Both the position numbers and the translations under genes were made by a program. From sequence record PZ386974.1: 64,000 bases of DNA; one strand, given 5' to 3'. Positions 34,470-62,555 of this stretch are shown piece by piece. Each line of letters starts with the position of its first letter. Position 1 is the first letter of the stretch. The notes beneath the pieces are model-generated. The model saw only the letters and a list, made by a program, of their open reading frames with translations. It had not been told where the DNA came from and made no database searches. Source of the stretch: a phage.

Positions 34470-34718
34470 TTATTTAAGGGTGATAACAAAATGACGTACT
34501 GCTTTACGAGCTGCAGAAGCCAAAGGCTTAGCGTATTTCAGTTCATCTTTTGCTTCCAGTTCAGAAGCCAAAGCTGCCTGTACCGGGTTCAGATGTTTGA
34601 AATATCGCAGGATTTCAAGAGCTTCGGCTTCAACATCAATAGATGCGCCATAGTTTTCGTGGCCGTTATTCCATGCGTTTCGTTGCAGTTCAAGAGCGTG
34701 TTGTAATTGTTTAATCAT
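34470..34718 (-). CDS. rIII: rIII lysis-inhibition accessory protein
   Basis: 82 aa; MIKQLQHALELQRNAWNNGHENYGASIDVEAEALEILRYFKHLNP matches T4 RIII. Confidence 0.93.
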   Translation of the reverse strand: MIKQLQHALELQRNAWNNGHENYGASIDVEAEALEILRYFKHLNPVQAALASELEAKDELKYAKPLASAARKAVRHFVITLK

Positions 34719-34834: not shown

Positions 34835-34842
34835 TATTTATA
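34835..34842 (-). promoter_or_regulatory. late promoter TATAAATA (minus strand) for rIII
   Basis: exact motif just downstream of gene 31 stop. Confidence 0.5.
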
Positions 34843-35541: not shown

Positions 35542-36112
35542 AAAAGTTTCGGATTTGTTCCCAATTCAGAGAACGAAGATTATTACGAGAGTACTGAATT
35601 ACTTCAATACCGGCTTGTTTTAGAATTTCGGCCCAATTTTCAGGAGATCTGTCATATAATTCCGCGTATACAACCTTTTTAATACCTGACTGCGTAATAG
35701 CTTTAGTGCAATCAGGACACGGAGAAAGCGTAGTATATAACGTAGCACCTTCAATAGAATTACCTTTACGAGCTGCAAACAAAATTGCGTTCAGTTCCGC
35801 ATGGATTTCGTTATTAGCAGACCATGCACTATGAGCGGCCCGATGTTCTTTAGCCAAAACAAAATTATCCACCCGTCCAAATGCTGTAGTGCCTTCTTTA
35901 TGCCCAGCAACGATGACCGGGCTTGGTTTATTCTTCAACCAACCGTTTTCGGATGCATGTTCGCAACAGTTTGTACCACCTGAAGGAGAGCCATTATAAC
36001 CTGTAGAAATAATGCGTCCATCCTTTTCAATGACGGCACCAACTTTCCATGAACAACATTTTGATTCTTGAGAAATCAGATATGCAATCTGAAGGTATGT
36101 GCTAGCTTTCAT
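35531..36112 (-). CDS. cd: dCMP deaminase
   Basis: 193 aa; zinc-binding CDA motifs (HAE..., PCPDC); T4 Cd length. Confidence 0.93.
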   Translation of the reverse strand: MKASTYLQIAYLISQESKCCSWKVGAVIEKDGRIISTGYNGSPSGGTNCCEHASENGWLKNKPSPVIVAGHKEGTTAFGRVDNFVLAKEHRAAHSAWSANNEIHAELNAILFAARKGNSIEGATLYTTLSPCPDCTKAITQSGIKKVVYAELYDRSPENWAEILKQAGIEVIQYSRNNLRSLNWEQIRNFCGE

Positions 36113-37104
36113 TATTGAACCTTATTAATATAAGTTAACAGCTCTTTAGTTTGTTCCCAACTGATGCACGCATCGGTAACGGAAACGCCATAGGACATAT
36201 TATCAGAAATTTTTTGATTTCCTTCATGTAGGAATGATTCTATCATAATTCCTTTGACCAAATCATTAGCTGCTAAATTTTTACCAATACCAATTTGATT
36301 GCTATAATGCCCATCAGCGTTTGCATGGCTACAGTCAACCATTACATAATGATTCAGACCTACTGCCCTTGCTTTGTTAGAAGCTTCTTGAATATCAGAA
36401 GAATGATAGTTCGGGCCGTTGGTCCCACCACGCAATACGATATGCGTATTCTGATTACCTTCAGCTTCAACAATGCCTACAGTACCATCGACGTCCATAC
36501 CCATATACCGATGAGGCCAGGCGGCACTATACATCGCGTCTGTAGCTACTTTAATAGAACCATTGGTTGCGTTCTTGAAGCCTACGCACATCGGTAGACC
36601 TGAAGCAATTTCACGATGTGTCTGACTTTCAGTCGTACGGGCGCCAATAGCAACCCATGAGAAAATACCAGAAAGATACTTAATCGTGAATGGGTCTAAT
36701 ACTTCAGTTGCTAATGGAAGTCCCATACGTAGAAGTTTACGACACAATGTTCGTGCAACTATAAGACCGTGGTTCATATCAAAACTTCCGTCAAGATATG
36801 GATCATTTACAAGACCTTTCCAACCTACGGTAGTTCGAGGCTTTTCAAAATAAACGCGCATCACTAACAGAACATTAGGAAGACGAGTTTGAAGTTCGGC
36901 CAGACGTTTGCCGTATTCAACAGCAGCAATAGGGTCATGAATTGAACAAGGACCTACAACAATAAGTTTGCGTGGGTCTTCACCGTTCATAATCGAATTA
37001 ACTTGTTCGCGATGAGAAGCCACTTGTGATGCGTAAGCTTCCGACAAAGGAATAATCTCAGCCAGTTCTTTTGGAGAAATAAGTTTTCCGACGACAGGTA
37101 ACAT
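36112..37104 (-). CDS. class I 3-deoxy-D-arabino-heptulosonate-7-phosphate (DAHP) synthase
   Basis: 330 aa; full-length similarity by recall to E. coli AroG/AroF/AroH incl. VVGPCSIHD, KPRTTVGWKGL, IGARTTESQ, DCSHAN, ESFLHEGNQ, TDACISW; stop overlaps cd start (TAATG). Confidence 0.9.
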   Translation of the reverse strand: MLPVVGKLISPKELAEIIPLSEAYASQVASHREQVNSIMNGEDPRKLIVVGPCSIHDPIAAVEYGKRLAELQTRLPNVLLVMRVYFEKPRTTVGWKGLVNDPYLDGSFDMNHGLIVARTLCRKLLRMGLPLATEVLDPFTIKYLSGIFSWVAIGARTTESQTHREIASGLPMCVGFKNATNGSIKVATDAMYSAAWPHRYMGMDVDGTVGIVEAEGNQNTHIVLRGGTNGPNYHSSDIQEASNKARAVGLNHYVMVDCSHANADGHYSNQIGIGKNLAANDLVKGIMIESFLHEGNQKISDNMSYGVSVTDACISWEQTKELLTYINKVQ

Positions 37105-38203: not shown

Positions 38204-39289
<1,086 letters not shown>

Positions 39290-39290
<1 letters not shown>

Positions 39291-39589
39291 TATTTGATTC
39301 CTAAGAAAGCTTCAAGAATACGAATGTTGAGTTCGCGCCGGTCTTTATTAATTTCAGCAACGTTTTTATTAATTGACGTACTTCTAACGTTTGAAGAAAT
39401 AAATTTAATCATATGACTTTTGAGTTGATGCAAATCCAACCCTTTTTCTTTAGCAGCTTTACGAAGAGCTTTACCTGCTTCATCTAGTGCTTTTGCCGCA
39501 TCTTTATCATAATTGCCAAGTGGCATTCCGCGGCAGATATCAATATACTCATCAGACCGTTTGATGTAATTCTCTAGTAATGTTTTCAT
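39290..39589 (-). CDS. hypothetical protein
   Basis: 99-aa ORF. Confidence 0.5.
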
Positions 39590-39617
39590 TTAGATTTCCT
39601 CAATTATCCATAGGAGC

Positions 39618-39647
39618 ATTATACTCTGCTCCCGAGAGTTTGTAAAC
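39618..39647 (-). promoter_or_regulatory. T4 early-type promoter (GTTTACA-N17-TATAAT)
   Basis: minus strand GTTTACA, 17 nt, TATAAT. Confidence 0.5.
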
Positions 39648-39871
39648 TATTTTACTAAAGATTCAATATACTCATGAAGAGCTTTAGTCGCTACTGCCCA
39701 CTTATTCTGATATTCATTTTTCAGATTAGCACGAGACTGAACTAACAAGCGATCATTAGTCGGAGGCAAAGATTCTAATCGTTGAATCTGGCGTCCATAA
39801 ATCATAGCCGCCATTTCAGATTCATAGATAAGCCCTTTAATGTATTCATGCTGTTCTTTAGTCATTGGCAT
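39647..39871 (-). CDS. hypothetical protein (pseT.1-like)
   Basis: 74-aa ORF. Confidence 0.5.
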   Translation of the reverse strand: MPMTKEQHEYIKGLIYESEMAAMIYGRQIQRLESLPPTNDRLLVQSRANLKNEYQNKWAVATKALHEYIESLVK

Positions 39872-40152
39872 TTTTCCTCTTTTAAACCACTACGATAATA
39901 ACATATCATAGTCTTCTGGTCGTGTACATATCTTTTTACGTCGTTTAACCAGATACGAAATTCTTGAGAGTCTTCAAATGGCATTCCGACCCACGGATTA
40001 CCATCAATAACCTTTACTTGCCATTTCTGGTTATATTCAGCAATAGATTCTGGCCATGGCGGATGTAAAGTTTCTTTAGGGCTTAAGGGCACATCCTGGG
40101 CACATCCGGCCAAAATGCCAATAGATAATACAACTGCGGTTAATTTAATCAT
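39862..40152 (-). CDS. outer-membrane spanin lipoprotein (o-spanin, PseT.2-like)
   Basis: 96 aa; signal peptide with lipobox LAGC; immediately downstream of i-spanin-like gene. Confidence 0.65.
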   Translation of the reverse strand: MIKLTAVVLSIGILAGCAQDVPLSPKETLHPPWPESIAEYNQKWQVKVIDGNPWVGMPFEDSQEFRIWLNDVKRYVHDQKTMICYYRSGLKEEKCQ

Positions 40153-40505
40153 TCTGAGAGCTTCCTGAGGTCTTCTGCAAAGGAATCGAAGGACCTGTTG
40201 ATTTGTTTTTCGACCAATCCTGGCTTACTTGCCACCACGTTCTTCTTCTTCGAATCCTTACGGAGCTTTTCATTTTCGGCCTTAAGTTGGTCAACTAAAA
40301 CACGGTTCTTATAAGTCATTTCTTCGATTGACTGATATTGAACCTTGAAGTCGTCTAATACTTTAGCATTGTTTTTAGCGGTCTCTTTGACAGAAGCTAA
40401 TTCAGTATTCAACGAATCAACTTTGTTGTTTAAGACAACTATTGTTATCGTAGAAACTAGAGCAAAAGCTGCTACTATAGCATAAATCGGATTTACTTTA
40501 AGCAT
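40149..40505 (-). CDS. inner-membrane spanin (i-spanin, PseT.3-like)
   Basis: 118 aa; N-terminal TM helix (IYAIVAAFALVSTITIVVL) then charged coiled-coil. Confidence 0.65.
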   Translation of the reverse strand: MLKVNPIYAIVAAFALVSTITIVVLNNKVDSLNTELASVKETAKNNAKVLDDFKVQYQSIEEMTYKNRVLVDQLKAENEKLRKDSKKKNVVASKPGLVEKQINRSFDSFAEDLRKLSE

Positions 40506-40993
40506 GTTTTAATAATCTCAATGATTTCATCTCGGGATAATCCATTGATAAGAACGGTTTTCGGACCATCGCACTGGATTTTGTACGATTCAAACAATAC
40601 ACACAACTCTTCTGCTGTATGATACGGACTTGAGATTCCGAGACGGTTGAATTTGTCGGTAAGAGGGTCGCAAATAATGTAGAATTTTATACCTGAGATA
40701 TGTACGTTTGGTTGACTAATATTAATGAACACATTAGCGTCATATTTAGTCAAATTGTTTTGAAGAAATTCTACCATGGCATTAACTGCTTCCGGCATCG
40801 CTTCACGTTTCTCTTCGGTGTAACGTGTTGAATATTCCTTTTGCTTTAACTTCTTTTTAGCATTTTTCGCTAGAGTAACACGTAGGTCAGTAAGATAACC
40901 AACTGCACGGCCTTTCTTAAAGACCCTGATTCCGTCTGTAGAATCACCAAATGCTGCCACAACCATATCGTTAGTAATCAATTGCATATTCAT
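40493..40993 (-). CDS. alc: Alc, inhibitor of host transcription on cytosine-containing DNA
   Basis: 167-aa product from internal ATG (MNMQLIT...) with GAGGAG RBS; matches T4 Alc. Confidence 0.9.
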   Translation of the reverse strand: MNMQLITNDMVVAAFGDSTDGIRVFKKGRAVGYLTDLRVTLAKNAKKKLKQKEYSTRYTEEKREAMPEAVNAMVEFLQNNLTKYDANVFINISQPNVHISGIKFYIICDPLTDKFNRLGISSPYHTAEELCVLFESYKIQCDGPKTVLINGLSRDEIIEIIKTCLK

Positions 40994-41023
40994 AATTTTC
41001 TCCTCGTGTTGTTGATAAAAGCC

Positions 41024-41053
41024 ATAGTAACACCTTCCTTGGTGTTTGTAAAC
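41024..41053 (-). promoter_or_regulatory. T4 early-type promoter (GTTTACA-N17-TACTAT) for alc
   Basis: located in the alc leader (the ORF-track N-terminal extension) just downstream of the rnlA stop. Confidence 0.45.
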
Positions 41054-41055
41054 CA

Positions 41056-42189
<1,134 letters not shown>

Positions 42190-42205: not shown

Positions 42206-42235
42206 ATTGTACCACAATCCTTGTGGTATGTAAAC
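42206..42235 (-). promoter_or_regulatory. T4 early-type promoter (GTTTACA-N17-TACAAT) for rnlA
   Basis: minus strand GTTTACA, 17 nt, TACAAT, then GAGGA RBS. Confidence 0.45.
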
Positions 42236-42645: not shown

Positions 42646-42671
42646 AATAAAGTGGGACCGAAGTCCCGTCC

Positions 42672-43859
42672 TTAGAAATATTTTTTGTATGAATTGATTA
42701 CATTTTGGTCTACATCATTATCAATTTGTGCGACAAGATAAGAACTGATTTCAACTTCCTGAGGAGCTGCTTGAACTAAATCAGAGTTCAGATATTCACG
42801 AATCCAAGGATACGGATGCTTTGTCGGAGCATCAGTGATTGGGCATGGCAAACCACACTGTTTCATACGAGACACAGTCAAGTAATCAACAAAAGCACAC
42901 ATACTCTGTGTATTGATGCCTGGGCATGTACCGTCTTTAAAGAGGTGTGCAGCCCATTCCTTCTCTTGACTATTTACTTCCATAAAAATGTCAACTGCTT
43001 CTTGTTCACATTCTTTAGCAATTTGAACCCACTCATCACCGTCAGTACCAGATTGAAGTTGACGGATAATGTACTGAGTACCCTTGAGATGGAGTTGTTC
43101 GTCACGAGCAATGAACTTCATAATCTTTGCATTACCTTCCATAATTTCCATATTTTTATGGAAGTTGAAAGTACATGCAAATGATACGTAAAAACGAATA
43201 GCTTCTAAGGCGTTGATAACATGCAAACAGAGATAAAGAGACTTCATTAAATCACGCTTGGCGTTAAACATTATTTCTTCGTACATCTCAATATCATTCT
43301 GCTGGCATGAGCCTATTGAATACTCATAATTTTCCTTAGCATTTTCCCAATGACGAGTCTTGACTAGAACATCATCGTAATATTTACCTATTGATTCAGC
43401 TCGTTTCATGATTGCTTCGTCTAATACAATCTCATCAAATACCTTAGATGGGTCTGTATAAAGATTTCGCATAATATGAGTATACGAACGAGAGTGAATA
43501 GTTTCACTGAAAGTCCATGTTGCAACCCATGTATCTAATGAAGGGTCAGAAATCAGTGCCATAAGTACCGCAGATGGGGCCCTGCCTTGGATAGAATCTA
43601 ATAATGATTGATACTTAAGATTGTTTGTAAAGATGTCCTGTTGGAACTGAGGAAGCTTATTGAACTGCGCAGAGTCCAACATCAAGTTTACCTCTTCGGG
43701 GCGCCAGAAAAATGACAATTGCTTTTCGGTCAAATCTTCAAAAACTTTATGGCGTTGAATATCATAACGCGCAATACCAAGACCAGAACCAAAGAACATC
43801 GGTTCATTCAAAACATCGACTTGTTGTGTGTTAAAAACTGTACTCATTATATTTCTCAC
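42672..43859 (-). CDS. nrdB: ribonucleotide reductase small subunit NrdB (intron-less)
   Basis: 395-aa uninterrupted ORF with diiron ligand motifs. Confidence 0.93.
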   Translation of the reverse strand: MRNIMSTVFNTQQVDVLNEPMFFGSGLGIARYDIQRHKVFEDLTEKQLSFFWRPEEVNLMLDSAQFNKLPQFQQDIFTNNLKYQSLLDSIQGRAPSAVLMALISDPSLDTWVATWTFSETIHSRSYTHIMRNLYTDPSKVFDEIVLDEAIMKRAESIGKYYDDVLVKTRHWENAKENYEYSIGSCQQNDIEMYEEIMFNAKRDLMKSLYLCLHVINALEAIRFYVSFACTFNFHKNMEIMEGNAKIMKFIARDEQLHLKGTQYIIRQLQSGTDGDEWVQIAKECEQEAVDIFMEVNSQEKEWAAHLFKDGTCPGINTQSMCAFVDYLTVSRMKQCGLPCPITDAPTKHPYPWIREYLNSDLVQAAPQEVEISSYLVAQIDNDVDQNVINSYKKYF

Positions 43860-46499: not shown

Positions 46500-48185
<1,686 letters not shown>

Positions 48186-50037: not shown

Positions 50038-50691
50038 TTAATACTTACATGATTTGATTGTTTCTATGAACAATTTCTTAGCAGCATTTCCATCGATTTG
50101 AAGTATTTTTCGATATGCCTTTAATTTGGTAGAATAATTTTGCCAGACTAAGTTATCGGTGAGTTCGTCGTGCTTATCTATAATATTCAAAAATGAATCT
50201 AACAACAAGAAGGTTTCAAATGAAATTACATTGCTTTGTAGCAATTTAAATATGTAGCTCGACTGAACTTTATTATTATAATCAAATATCTCTTGAAGCG
50301 CGCTAACTTCAACTTTCTTACTGAAATAGTAGATGTTACGTACATCTTCAGCAAACGTCTCCTTGGCTTGTTTGAGACGTCCAATATATTCCCTATAGAA
50401 AACTAATGCATCAGCGTCTGATATCTCACCAATCCATGCGTCTTGGTTAGCAACTAAGTTGCTTATGAATATCAAGGTGAGTTCCTTCAATTTATATTTC
50501 TCTGCTAGTTTTTCAAAGAAATATTTATCTCGGCGTTTTTGATACGCATTATCCGAAACACGCATGCACCAGTTATATTTGATTACGTCATACCGACCAT
50601 TAAAATGTTGTTTGCACATCAAGTATAGTTTGTATACCGATTTTCCGTTAATATAACGTTCTCCATCAGGAGGCATGCGTATTTTAATCAT
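50038..50691 (-). CDS. 59: helicase loader gp59
   Basis: 217 aa, matches T4 gp59. Confidence 0.93.
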   Translation of the reverse strand: MIKIRMPPDGERYINGKSVYKLYLMCKQHFNGRYDVIKYNWCMRVSDNAYQKRRDKYFFEKLAEKYKLKELTLIFISNLVANQDAWIGEISDADALVFYREYIGRLKQAKETFAEDVRNIYYFSKKVEVSALQEIFDYNNKVQSSYIFKLLQSNVISFETFLLLDSFLNIIDKHDELTDNLVWQNYSTKLKAYRKILQIDGNAAKKLFIETIKSCKY

Positions 50692-51026
50692 AATAAGAAA
50701 TCTAACGTATTAGTTTTTTCACCACGAGCAACTGATGGGCGAAGCATATTTTCGTCAATTGCTTCGCTTGTAATTTTTTCAACAATTCCTGTAGGAATAA
50801 ATTTAGCAAATTGTGTTTCTGGGATAGAATTTTCTTCCAAGAAAGCAGTTGTTGCTTCTAAATAAGACATACCAAATTGTTCAACCATGGATTCGATAAT
50901 GAATCCGTTTTCTTGTCGGTCAAGCAATTTAGCGATATCATCTTTATCGTGTTTTACTGCTAATTCTTGTTCAGATAAACCGGCCTCATCAACCGGTTTA
51001 ATATCACTTAGTGAAAACTGTGTCAT
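50688..51026 (-). CDS. 33: late transcription co-activator gp33
   Basis: 112 aa, matches T4 gp33. Confidence 0.92.
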   Translation of the reverse strand: MTQFSLSDIKPVDEAGLSEQELAVKHDKDDIAKLLDRQENGFIIESMVEQFGMSYLEATTAFLEENSIPETQFAKFIPTGIVEKITSEAIDENMLRPSVARGEKTNTLDFLL

Positions 51027-51273
51027 AAAGCTCGACTACCTCTTCGTTTTCAGCTTCAAATTGGTCACGAGCGTCTTTATGATAAAGAGCTAACAAACGA
51101 TTAAACATTTTTCCATCGACACCAAGCTCTTCTTTAGCACGAGTACGAATGTCTTTAATCAGTTCATTATAACCAGAAATTTTAAGTTTGTTATCGGAAG
51201 CTTCCTTGACTAGTTTAGCCAGTTCTTCACCATGCACATCTTGATTAAATTCAACTGCTTCTTTCTTAGCCAT
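51004..51273 (-). CDS. dsbA: dsDNA-binding protein DsbA
   Basis: 89-aa product from internal ATG (MAKKEAVEF...) with GAGGT RBS. Confidence 0.85.
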   Translation of the reverse strand: MAKKEAVEFNQDVHGEELAKLVKEASDNKLKISGYNELIKDIRTRAKEELGVDGKMFNRLLALYHKDARDQFEAENEEVVELYDTVFTK

Positions 51274-51280
51274 GTTTACC

Positions 51281-52198
51281 TCAGAATTCATTAATTACAC
51301 TTGTTAATTTAGAAAGGCCAGATTTTACAAAGTATGAATAAATCTTGCCTTTAGGTTGTTGTTTATATGAGTTATAATACTCTATAATGGTTGAAGCAAT
51401 ATTATCAGGGATATAATCAAAATCAATGAGAACCAAATTTTCTTGATACCGTTTATATTCTTCTGCACTTAATAATACTTCAGCTTGAGAACGGTCATTA
51501 GCAATTGCTTCAATAATTGATGTTTTCATGCTTGGAGTTCGTTCACCATCAACTCTGGTAAACCAGAAGTCGCCACGAACTCGAACAGATGCAACGCCGT
51601 CTTTACGGTCACCTTTAAGAATTTTAGTCATGCAATCAATTTCAGCAGAACCGTTCTTAATTTTAACCCATTTTTTCTGTGGTGGCGACCACTGTTTAAC
51701 GTTAGGATATTTGTGTAATTGTGTAAAGTCACCATCTGATGCAACAATACATACCTTATGACCAGCTAATGACAAATATTTAGTTAATACACCGATATGG
51801 TCGTCCGCTTCATACTTGTCAATATCCATTACAACGTATGGCATGTATTTCTTAATCTCATCAACAACTTGATGGAGTGCAGTAAAATATCCTTCCCAAT
51901 CCCACTTTGAAGCTTCACGATCGGTTTTACGATTTTTCTTGTAATAGTAAGCAAAGTCACGACGCCAATAACCTGAAGTAGCATTATCCATACACAATAC
52001 AAATTTTGTATAGCCTTGCTTACGGAACATCACTACGTTTTTACGAATTGAATTCAAGATTACATGTCGAACCATTGGAACAGTAATTTTATCACCGTCT
52101 TCAAAGTTGTTTAATGCGGCTGCCAACGCAATGTTACTAAAGTCGGCAAGTGCAATACCTTCTTTGTAATCTTCATCCAACATCATTTCTAAATCCAT
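51281..52198 (-). CDS. rnh: RNase H (5'-3' exonuclease / flap endonuclease)
   Basis: 305 aa, matches T4 RNase H. Confidence 0.93.
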   Translation of the reverse strand: MDLEMMLDEDYKEGIALADFSNIALAAALNNFEDGDKITVPMVRHVILNSIRKNVVMFRKQGYTKFVLCMDNATSGYWRRDFAYYYKKNRKTDREASKWDWEGYFTALHQVVDEIKKYMPYVVMDIDKYEADDHIGVLTKYLSLAGHKVCIVASDGDFTQLHKYPNVKQWSPPQKKWVKIKNGSAEIDCMTKILKGDRKDGVASVRVRGDFWFTRVDGERTPSMKTSIIEAIANDRSQAEVLLSAEEYKRYQENLVLIDFDYIPDNIASTIIEYYNSYKQQPKGKIYSYFVKSGLSKLTSVINEF

Positions 52199-61334: not shown

Positions 61335-61886
61335 ATGAAACTCTATCATTATTATTTTGACACTAAAGAATTTTACAAAGAAGAAAATTATAAACCATTA
61401 AAAGGCGTAGGATTTCCGGCTCATTCGACACCAAAAAAACCTTTAGACCCTAAAGAAGGCTATGCTGTTATATTTGATGAACGCGAACAAGAATGGGTAT
61501 ATGTTGAAGACCATCGTGGAAAAACGGTATGGACTTATGATAAGCAAAAAATTGTTATTGACACTCCAGGTGCTCTTCAAAATGTTACTACAGAAGAACC
61601 TGGTGAATTTGACATTTGGACCGACGACGGGTGGAAGGAAGATGAAGCATATAAACGTGTAGTTCAACGTGATAAGAAAATTCATGAACTCTATAAATTA
61701 TTCAGTGTTTTAAGTTCTCTTATTGATGCAGAGGTTGCTAATAGAGAAGAAAAACGAAAATTTAAAGAGCTCAAAAAATTCTTTGCCCTTTTAGAAAAAC
61801 ATGAACATCTTGGCGGCGAATTCCCTAAATTCCCTGACCTTGAAAGCAAATCACTTGTTAAACGAATTATAAATATCTTTAAGTAA
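61335..61886 (+). CDS. 38: tail fibre assembly chaperone gp38 (T4-type)
   Basis: 183 aa; MKLYHYYFDTKEFYKEENYKP... matches T4 gp38. Confidence 0.93.
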   Translation: MKLYHYYFDTKEFYKEENYKPLKGVGFPAHSTPKKPLDPKEGYAVIFDEREQEWVYVEDHRGKTVWTYDKQKIVIDTPGALQNVTTEEPGEFDIWTDDGWKEDEAYKRVVQRDKKIHELYKLFSVLSSLIDAEVANREEKRKFKELKKFFALLEKHEHLGGEFPKFPDLESKSLVKRIINIFK

Positions 61887-61895
61887 GGAGGTATT

Positions 61896-62555
61896 ATGGC
61901 AACACCAAAAGTGTCATTTTCGCCTAGTGATATTCTATTTGGGTTGCTAGATCGTATTTTCAAAGATAACGCTACTGGAAAGGTTTTAATGTCCCGAGTA
62001 GCGGTAATTATTCTTTTGTTCCTAATGGCACTAATATGGTACAAAGGAAGTATTTTGCTGGATTATTATGTAAGAGCTAAGTATGATACTTATACTGAAA
62101 TAATCCAAAAAGAACGAGCTTTACGTTTTGAATCTGCGGCTCTAGAACAACTGCAAATAGTTCATATCTCATCTGGTGCAGATTTTAGTGCTGTGTATTC
62201 TTTCAGACCTAAAAACTTAAATTATTTTGTCGACCTTATAGCTTATGAAGGCAAACTACCTAGCACAATTTCTGAAAAGTCCCTTGGCGGATTCCCGGTG
62301 GATAAAACGGCCAATGAATATATAATTCATTTAAGCGGCCGTCATTTCTCATCTAAATCAGAATTTGCATTTTTGCCTACAAAATCTAAGACTGCCGAAC
62401 TTTCTTATATGTATAGCTGTCCATACTTTAATTTGGATAACATCTATGCTGGAACTGTGACGATGTATTGGTATAAGGGGAATAATATACTTGAGGAGGA
62501 CCGCTTAGCGGCTATATGCAACCAAGCGGTCCGAATACTAGGAAGGGCTAAATAA
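61896..62555 (+). CDS. t: holin T
   Basis: 219 aa; single N-terminal TM segment, large periplasmic domain; matches T4 T. Confidence 0.93.
   Translation: MATPKVSFSPSDILFGLLDRIFKDNATGKVLMSRVAVIILLFLMALIWYKGSILLDYYVRAKYDTYTEIIQKERALRFESAALEQLQIVHISSGADFSAVYSFRPKNLNYFVDLIAYEGKLPSTISEKSLGGFPVDKTANEYIIHLSGRHFSSKSEFAFLPTKSKTAELSYMYSCPYFNLDNIYAGTVTMYWYKGNNILEEDRLAAICNQAVRILGRAK

Follow-up and report, generated by a model that had tools for sequence, protein, structure and literature searches.

The DNA analyzed here is a 64,000-nucleotide stretch of phage sequence (PZ386974.1), referred to in its entirety as the window, and positions 39862-40505 within it hold exactly two open reading frames (ORFs), both on the minus strand. 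The upstream ORF (40149..40505) starts with ATG and encodes a 118-aa protein that begins MLKVNPIYAIVAAFALVSTITIVVLNNK, and the downstream ORF (39862..40152), which also starts with ATG, encodes a predicted 96-aa prolipoprotein whose translation opens with MIKLTAVVLSIGILAGCAQ. We refer to these as the genes for the i-spanin and for the o-spanin, the orthologues of pseT.3 and pseT.2 of phage T4, respectively. The two genes are adjacent, with the i-spanin gene first, and lie between alc and pseT.1 in the architecture called "separated." The start codon of the o-spanin gene is placed over the i-spanin gene's TGA stop codon in the sequence ATGA (40149..40152, minus strand), and this 4-nt overlap, which had been reported before, may allow coupled translation of the two proteins. 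The original prediction for this DNA was accurate in describing such a pair, but it named neither the strand of the genes (minus) nor the two additional small ORFs that are present between pseT.1 and pseT.

The order of the surrounding genes, rnlA-alc-pseT.3-pseT.2-pseT.1-...-pseT, is that of T4, and the original prediction had likewise matched the pair to the T4 arrangement. The host transcription inhibitor gene alc (40493..40993, minus strand; Pfam ALC, E value of 2.5e-42 from residue 22) is directly upstream of the i-spanin gene, whose start is overlapped by 13 nt by the alc 3' end, and rnlA (41056..42180; PHROG 562) lies upstream of alc. A longer alc ORF of 187 aa (40493..41056, minus strand) was called mechanically, and a promoter-like site at 41052..41024 falls inside its extension. 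The tblastn match of T4 Alc spans 40993..40505 and relatives annotate alc as 501 nt; the gene probably starts at M22 (40993), with the 187-aa ORF being over-extended. On the other side of the pair, the pseT.1 orthologue (39647..39865, minus strand; PHROG 2347; 82% identity to T4 PseT.1 by tblastn) overlaps the o-spanin stop codon, and pseT (PHROG 505) is found farther downstream. Two small minus-strand ORFs, one of 99 aa (39290..39589) and one of 63 aa (39099..39290), separate pseT.1 from pseT, whereas T4 has nothing at this position. They belong to PHROG 2364 and 8683, families without an assigned function, and both are shared by the Mosigvirus relatives. When the annotations of T4 and six other Tevenvirinae were surveyed, covering Tequatrovirus, Mosigvirus, Jiaodavirus, Moonvirus, Karamvirus, and two phages without a genus label, the order alc, i-spanin, o-spanin and the 4-nt overlap were present throughout.

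The Kyte-Doolittle hydropathy of the i-spanin (19-residue window) peaks at 2.57 over residues 7-25 (IYAIVAAFALVSTITIVVL), and this stretch is part of a single hydrophobic segment, a predicted transmembrane domain (TMD) at approximately residues 6-25 that would give the protein an N-in/C-out topology in the inner membrane. The protein contains no Cys residues, and 69% of the heptad a/d positions are hydrophobic in the best register. In an AlphaFold2 model made from single-sequence input (mean pLDDT of 85), residues 6-88 form one helix in which the TMD is continuous with the periplasmic alpha1, followed by a 7-residue linker (89-95) and the helix alpha2 (96-117), which is the same layout of TMD, alpha1, short linker, and alpha2 as that of T4 PseT.3 (PMC6139136). 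The proposal of a type II membrane protein with a coiled coil is thus in line with one N-terminal TMD and a long helical periplasmic domain, as predicted by hydropathy and the model. The i-spanin matched PHROG 739, "Rz-like spanin," with an E value of 6.4e-35 and was 48% identical to PseT.3 of the T4 reference (NC_000866) by BLASTP (4e-33). In an alignment of eight Tevenvirinae, a KPGLVEKQINxSF block near the C terminus was retained, while alpha1 and the TMD varied. Homologues were detected by tblastn in 991 phage records, which places the ORF pair far beyond chance.

The start of the o-spanin, MIKLTAVVLSIGILAGC, fits a lipobox pattern of the PROSITE PS51257 type, in which residues 14-17 are LAGC, and the earlier reading of this protein as a lipoprotein with that lipobox therefore held up. 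The residue at position +2 is Ala and not Asp. Under the +2 rule of E. coli, Ala at this position leads to Lol-dependent sorting to the outer membrane, so the o-spanin would be expected to be lipidated at Cys17 and sorted there. Outside residues 1-19, no window has a hydrophobicity above 1.6. Besides the lipobox Cys at position 17 there are Cys residues at positions 84 and 95, both in the predicted periplasmic part. The o-spanin matched PHROG 812, also "Rz-like spanin," with an E value of 1.5e-43 and was 69% identical to PseT.2 of the same T4 reference by BLASTP (4e-51). Seven residues were invariant in the eight-phage o-spanin alignment (C17, P31, P34, W44, P58, C84, and C95), and the last six of these correspond to P31, P34, W47, P61, C87, and C98 of T4 PseT.2, all of which were reported to be conserved (Kongari et al. 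2018, PMC6139136). The single-sequence AlphaFold2 model of the o-spanin is of low confidence (pLDDT of 47), and its strand-helix-strand order only loosely resembles the published beta1-alpha-beta2 prediction. A sequence search of the PDB with the o-spanin returned no meaningful relative (best E value of 0.5).

Scans of both proteins against Pfam and NCBIfam gave either nothing or subthreshold coiled-coil or DUF matches. Since neither library has a model that recognizes T4-type spanins, these blanks are uninformative and do not count against the assignment, and the family assignment instead rests on the PHROGs matches and the direct comparison with T4. All of the features of a T4 PseT.3/PseT.2-type pair that can be tested from sequence were found at this locus, including homology, a TMD with helices, the lipobox, the pattern of Cys residues, and the gene order. 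We consider it highly probable (approximately 95%) that the two genes encode a T4-type two-component spanin, orthologous to pseT.3/pseT.2, that would break the outer membrane late in infection. The function of the pair is transferred from its orthologues in T4, to which the two proteins are 48% and 69% identical.

By its sequence, the window is from a Mosigvirus coliphage. A megablast search with positions 39600-40700 matched 271 phage records, the best of them 98.5% identical over the full length, and the best relatives were the Escherichia phages F2 (NC_054913), SQ17 (MW882907), PNJ-9, and 348Ecol098PP (OR062947), of the genus Mosigvirus. The spanin loci of Mizar (PV714129), 348Ecol098PP, F2, and SQ17 are 98-98.5% identical to this one at the DNA level, have the same neighbors, and show essentially no difference from it; the i-spanin is 97.5-100% identical among these relatives and 100% identical to that of SQ17. 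The near-identical proteins are named "i-spanin" and "o-spanin" in the Mizar record and spanin inner and outer subunits in 348Ecol098PP, and the labels used by other relatives include spanin Rz/Rz1, Rz-like spanin, and, in some cases, "hypothetical protein." Many near-identical records carry this last label and Pfam and NCBIfam are blind to these proteins, so automated pipelines can miss such spanins.

Other features of the window were recorded in the course of these comparisons. A minus-strand gene at 36112..37104 encodes a 330-aa DAHP synthase, an enzyme of the aromatic amino acid pathway (Pfam DAHP_synth_1, 5e-75). It closely follows the pseT region on its downstream side, is directly upstream of cd, and is annotated in 348Ecol098PP, whereas T4 has only the small ORFs cd.1-cd.5 at this position. 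Both nrdB (395 aa, 42672..43859, minus strand) and td (286 aa, 46500..47360, minus strand) are uninterrupted. In 348Ecol098PP, which is 98% similar, both genes are instead split and accompanied by intron-associated endonucleases, and an extra endonuclease gene is found between gp33 and gp59; the third region that lacks an insertion relative to that phage is at 50691..51281. At least three insertions of introns or homing endonucleases are thus missing from the genome studied here, and scanning the complete window against Rfam gave no match, including no group I intron. Directly downstream of nrdB, the sequence GGGACTTCGGTCCC (42654..42667, minus strand) is a GC-rich hairpin capped by a UUCG tetraloop that could be a terminator or an RNA stability element.

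The lysis genes of this phage are dispersed and do not form a cassette, in keeping with the original prediction, which had put the pair approximately 22 kb from the holin gene t. The distance from this gene (61896..62555, plus strand; PHROG 860, 1.6e-102; Pfam Phage_holin_T, 4.2e-92) to the start of the i-spanin is 21.4 kb, and to the end of the o-spanin it is 22.0 kb. The late-promoter motif TATAAATA is present 21 nt upstream of t, at 61868-61875 on the plus strand. An 82-aa ORF (34470..34718, minus strand), taken as rIII and thus as a further scattered gene of lysis control, occupies the position of the annotated lysis-inhibition accessory gene rIII of 348Ecol098PP, and the same motif lies just upstream of it (34842..34835, minus strand). 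Neither T4 endolysin E nor RI gave a tblastn match within the 64,000-nt window, which places the endolysin gene e and the antiholin gene rI elsewhere in the genome. Dispersed lysis genes are likewise stated for T4 (PMC6139136, Fig. 8a legend).

The sequence upstream of the spanin genes was examined for promoters of the T4 temporal classes. A candidate sigma70-like promoter of the T4 early type (TTTACA-17-TACTAT with TG; 41024..41052, minus strand) precedes alc and likely drives a transcript that carries alc, both spanin genes, and pseT.1. A further early-type sigma70-like match is at 42234..42206. The best sigma70-like match of the region (TTTACA-17-TATAAT, 11/12) is a promoter-like site at 39646..39618 on the minus strand that precedes the two small ORFs and has in common with the candidate at 41052..41024 the block GTTTACAAAC. 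The exact late-promoter motif TATAAATA is enriched in the window (20 occurrences versus 7.1 expected), mostly preceding structural genes, and no copy lies between 34842 and 50001 of the minus strand, so that none precedes the spanin genes. Two late-promoter-like octamers with one mismatch are located upstream of the pair, TATGAATA at 40994..40987 and TACAAATA at 41509..41502, and some late transcription of the spanins is therefore possible. No full match to the MotA-box (middle promoter) pattern was detected upstream of the spanin genes. A terminator-like hairpin within alc (40621..40600) has three GC pairs and was judged to be a chance match, and a repeat scan of 39000-41200 yielded nothing except short promoter-like repeats. 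Since the pair lies downstream of alc in an early-type unit without a late-promoter consensus, synthesis of the spanins is probably early, from the alc transcript, and the proteins would then await the removal of peptidoglycan. This timing is tentative, because promoter-like matches are no more common here than in shuffled sequence (16 found versus 16.6 expected).

We infer the action of the pair from the T4 and lambda literature, and this applies to topology, lipidation, sorting, and early transcription as well as to the later steps. The single TMD of the i-spanin would fix it in the inner membrane in an N-in/C-out orientation, and the o-spanin would be lipidated at Cys17 via Lgt, LspA, and Lnt and then carried to the outer membrane by the Lol system. 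The two proteins would bind each other in the periplasm by their C-terminal portions, giving complexes that reach across the envelope through the mesh of peptidoglycan, and Cys84 and Cys95 of the o-spanin would form the disulfides required for the function of the T4 orthologue, in which either C87S or C98S abolishes lysis (PMC6139136). Such complexes would remain inactive until holin T has triggered and the peptidoglycan has been stripped by endolysin E; the freed complexes would then shift laterally and collapse, fusing the inner membrane with the outer one to complete lysis, as in the published model in which the peptidoglycan mesh restrains the complexes and the membranes fuse after endolysin action (PMC6139136). 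The complex would probably be preloaded well ahead of the firing of the late-expressed holin. Because intact peptidoglycan restrains the spanin, early loading would be tolerable and no timing of its own would be necessary. In support of the assigned function, T4 pseT.3/pseT.2 complement lambda Rz-am/Rz1-am (Kongari et al. 2018, PMC6139136, Fig. 8b).

Early synthesis could also be read differently, with the pair being a true spanin whose place in the early alc-pseT region reflects a second, earlier role, such as tethering the envelope, with an effect on superinfection, on lysis inhibition, or on how well the cell resists lysis from without. Such a role would agree with the presence of early-type sigma70-like promoters and not the exact late motif ahead of the spanin genes, as well as with the retention of the alc-adjacent position in T4 and six other Tevenvirinae. 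These promoter calls are, however, consensus matches that were as frequent in shuffled sequence (16 against 16.6), no positive sign of such a role emerged from the analysis, PseT.3/PseT.2 are discussed solely in lysis in PMC6139136, and the inertness of spanins before peptidoglycan is degraded explains early synthesis well enough. We regard a second role as very improbable, and the same small chance is given to the idea that early-installed complexes serve beyond terminal lysis, for example, by stabilizing the envelope during lysis inhibition or by an effect on superinfecting phage.

A different doubt concerns the anchoring of the 118-aa protein, which has an A-x-A motif inside its N-terminal hydrophobic region (AFA, residues 13-15) and might therefore be exported with a cleavable signal peptide and end up soluble in the periplasm. 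Hydrophobicity nevertheless continues for approximately 10 residues beyond this motif, to give an approximately 20-residue segment of the kind typical of a TMD, AlphaFold2 places the N-terminal segment and alpha1 in one continuous helix, and in the T4 orthologue the hydrophobic region at the N terminus is drawn as a TMD (PMC6139136, Fig. 8a legend). These points make a soluble protein scarcely credible, less so even than a second role, and argue for the membrane-anchored i-spanin. A unimolecular spanin of the T1 gp11 type, which has an N-terminal lipobox and a C-terminal TMD in one protein, was also considered and rejected, as a second hydrophobic segment is missing from the 96-aa lipoprotein.

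The T4-type two-component spanin favored here, and its distance from the holin gene, are ordinary and previously documented, and the locus is a textbook case both of the "separated" spanin of the T4 type and of the scattered lysis genes found in T-even phages. Its importance goes little beyond correct annotation.

The two-component architecture of T4 PseT.3/PseT.2 was reportedly described as "separated" by Summer et al. in 2007. The pair studied here shares with that of T4 the gene order alc, i-spanin, o-spanin, pseT.1, the ATGA overlap, and a location far from t and e. At the protein level, the i-spanins of both phages have a single N-terminal TMD, zero Cys residues, and KPGLVEKQINxSF in alpha2, and both o-spanins have the lipobox Cys and two C-terminal Cys residues. 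The proteins differ slightly in size (118 aa here versus 117 aa in T4 for the i-spanin and 96 aa versus 99 aa for the o-spanin), the o-spanin linker is three residues shorter here, and the lipobox is LAGC here and LVGC in T4. The comparison with lambda Rz/Rz1 shows the same logic, in which an outer-membrane lipoprotein is paired with a type II protein of the inner membrane whose periplasmic domain is helical or a coiled coil, but the genes are separated here, whereas in lambda the gene for the o-spanin is embedded in that for the i-spanin, in the +1 frame. Compared to Rz/Rz1, the T4 type has one coiled-coil-prone helix only, a structured o-spanin without a proline-rich stretch, and disulfides that are confined to the o-spanin (PMC6139136). 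The pair had no significant match to the Pfam Rz or Rz1 families, and its sole link to the Rz side was a weak match to PHROG 214, a second "Rz-like spanin" family (9.6e-7). Given the lack of a Pfam Rz/Rz1 match and the genes that are not embedded, the pair is a functional analogue of lambda Rz/Rz1 and not a member of that sequence family.
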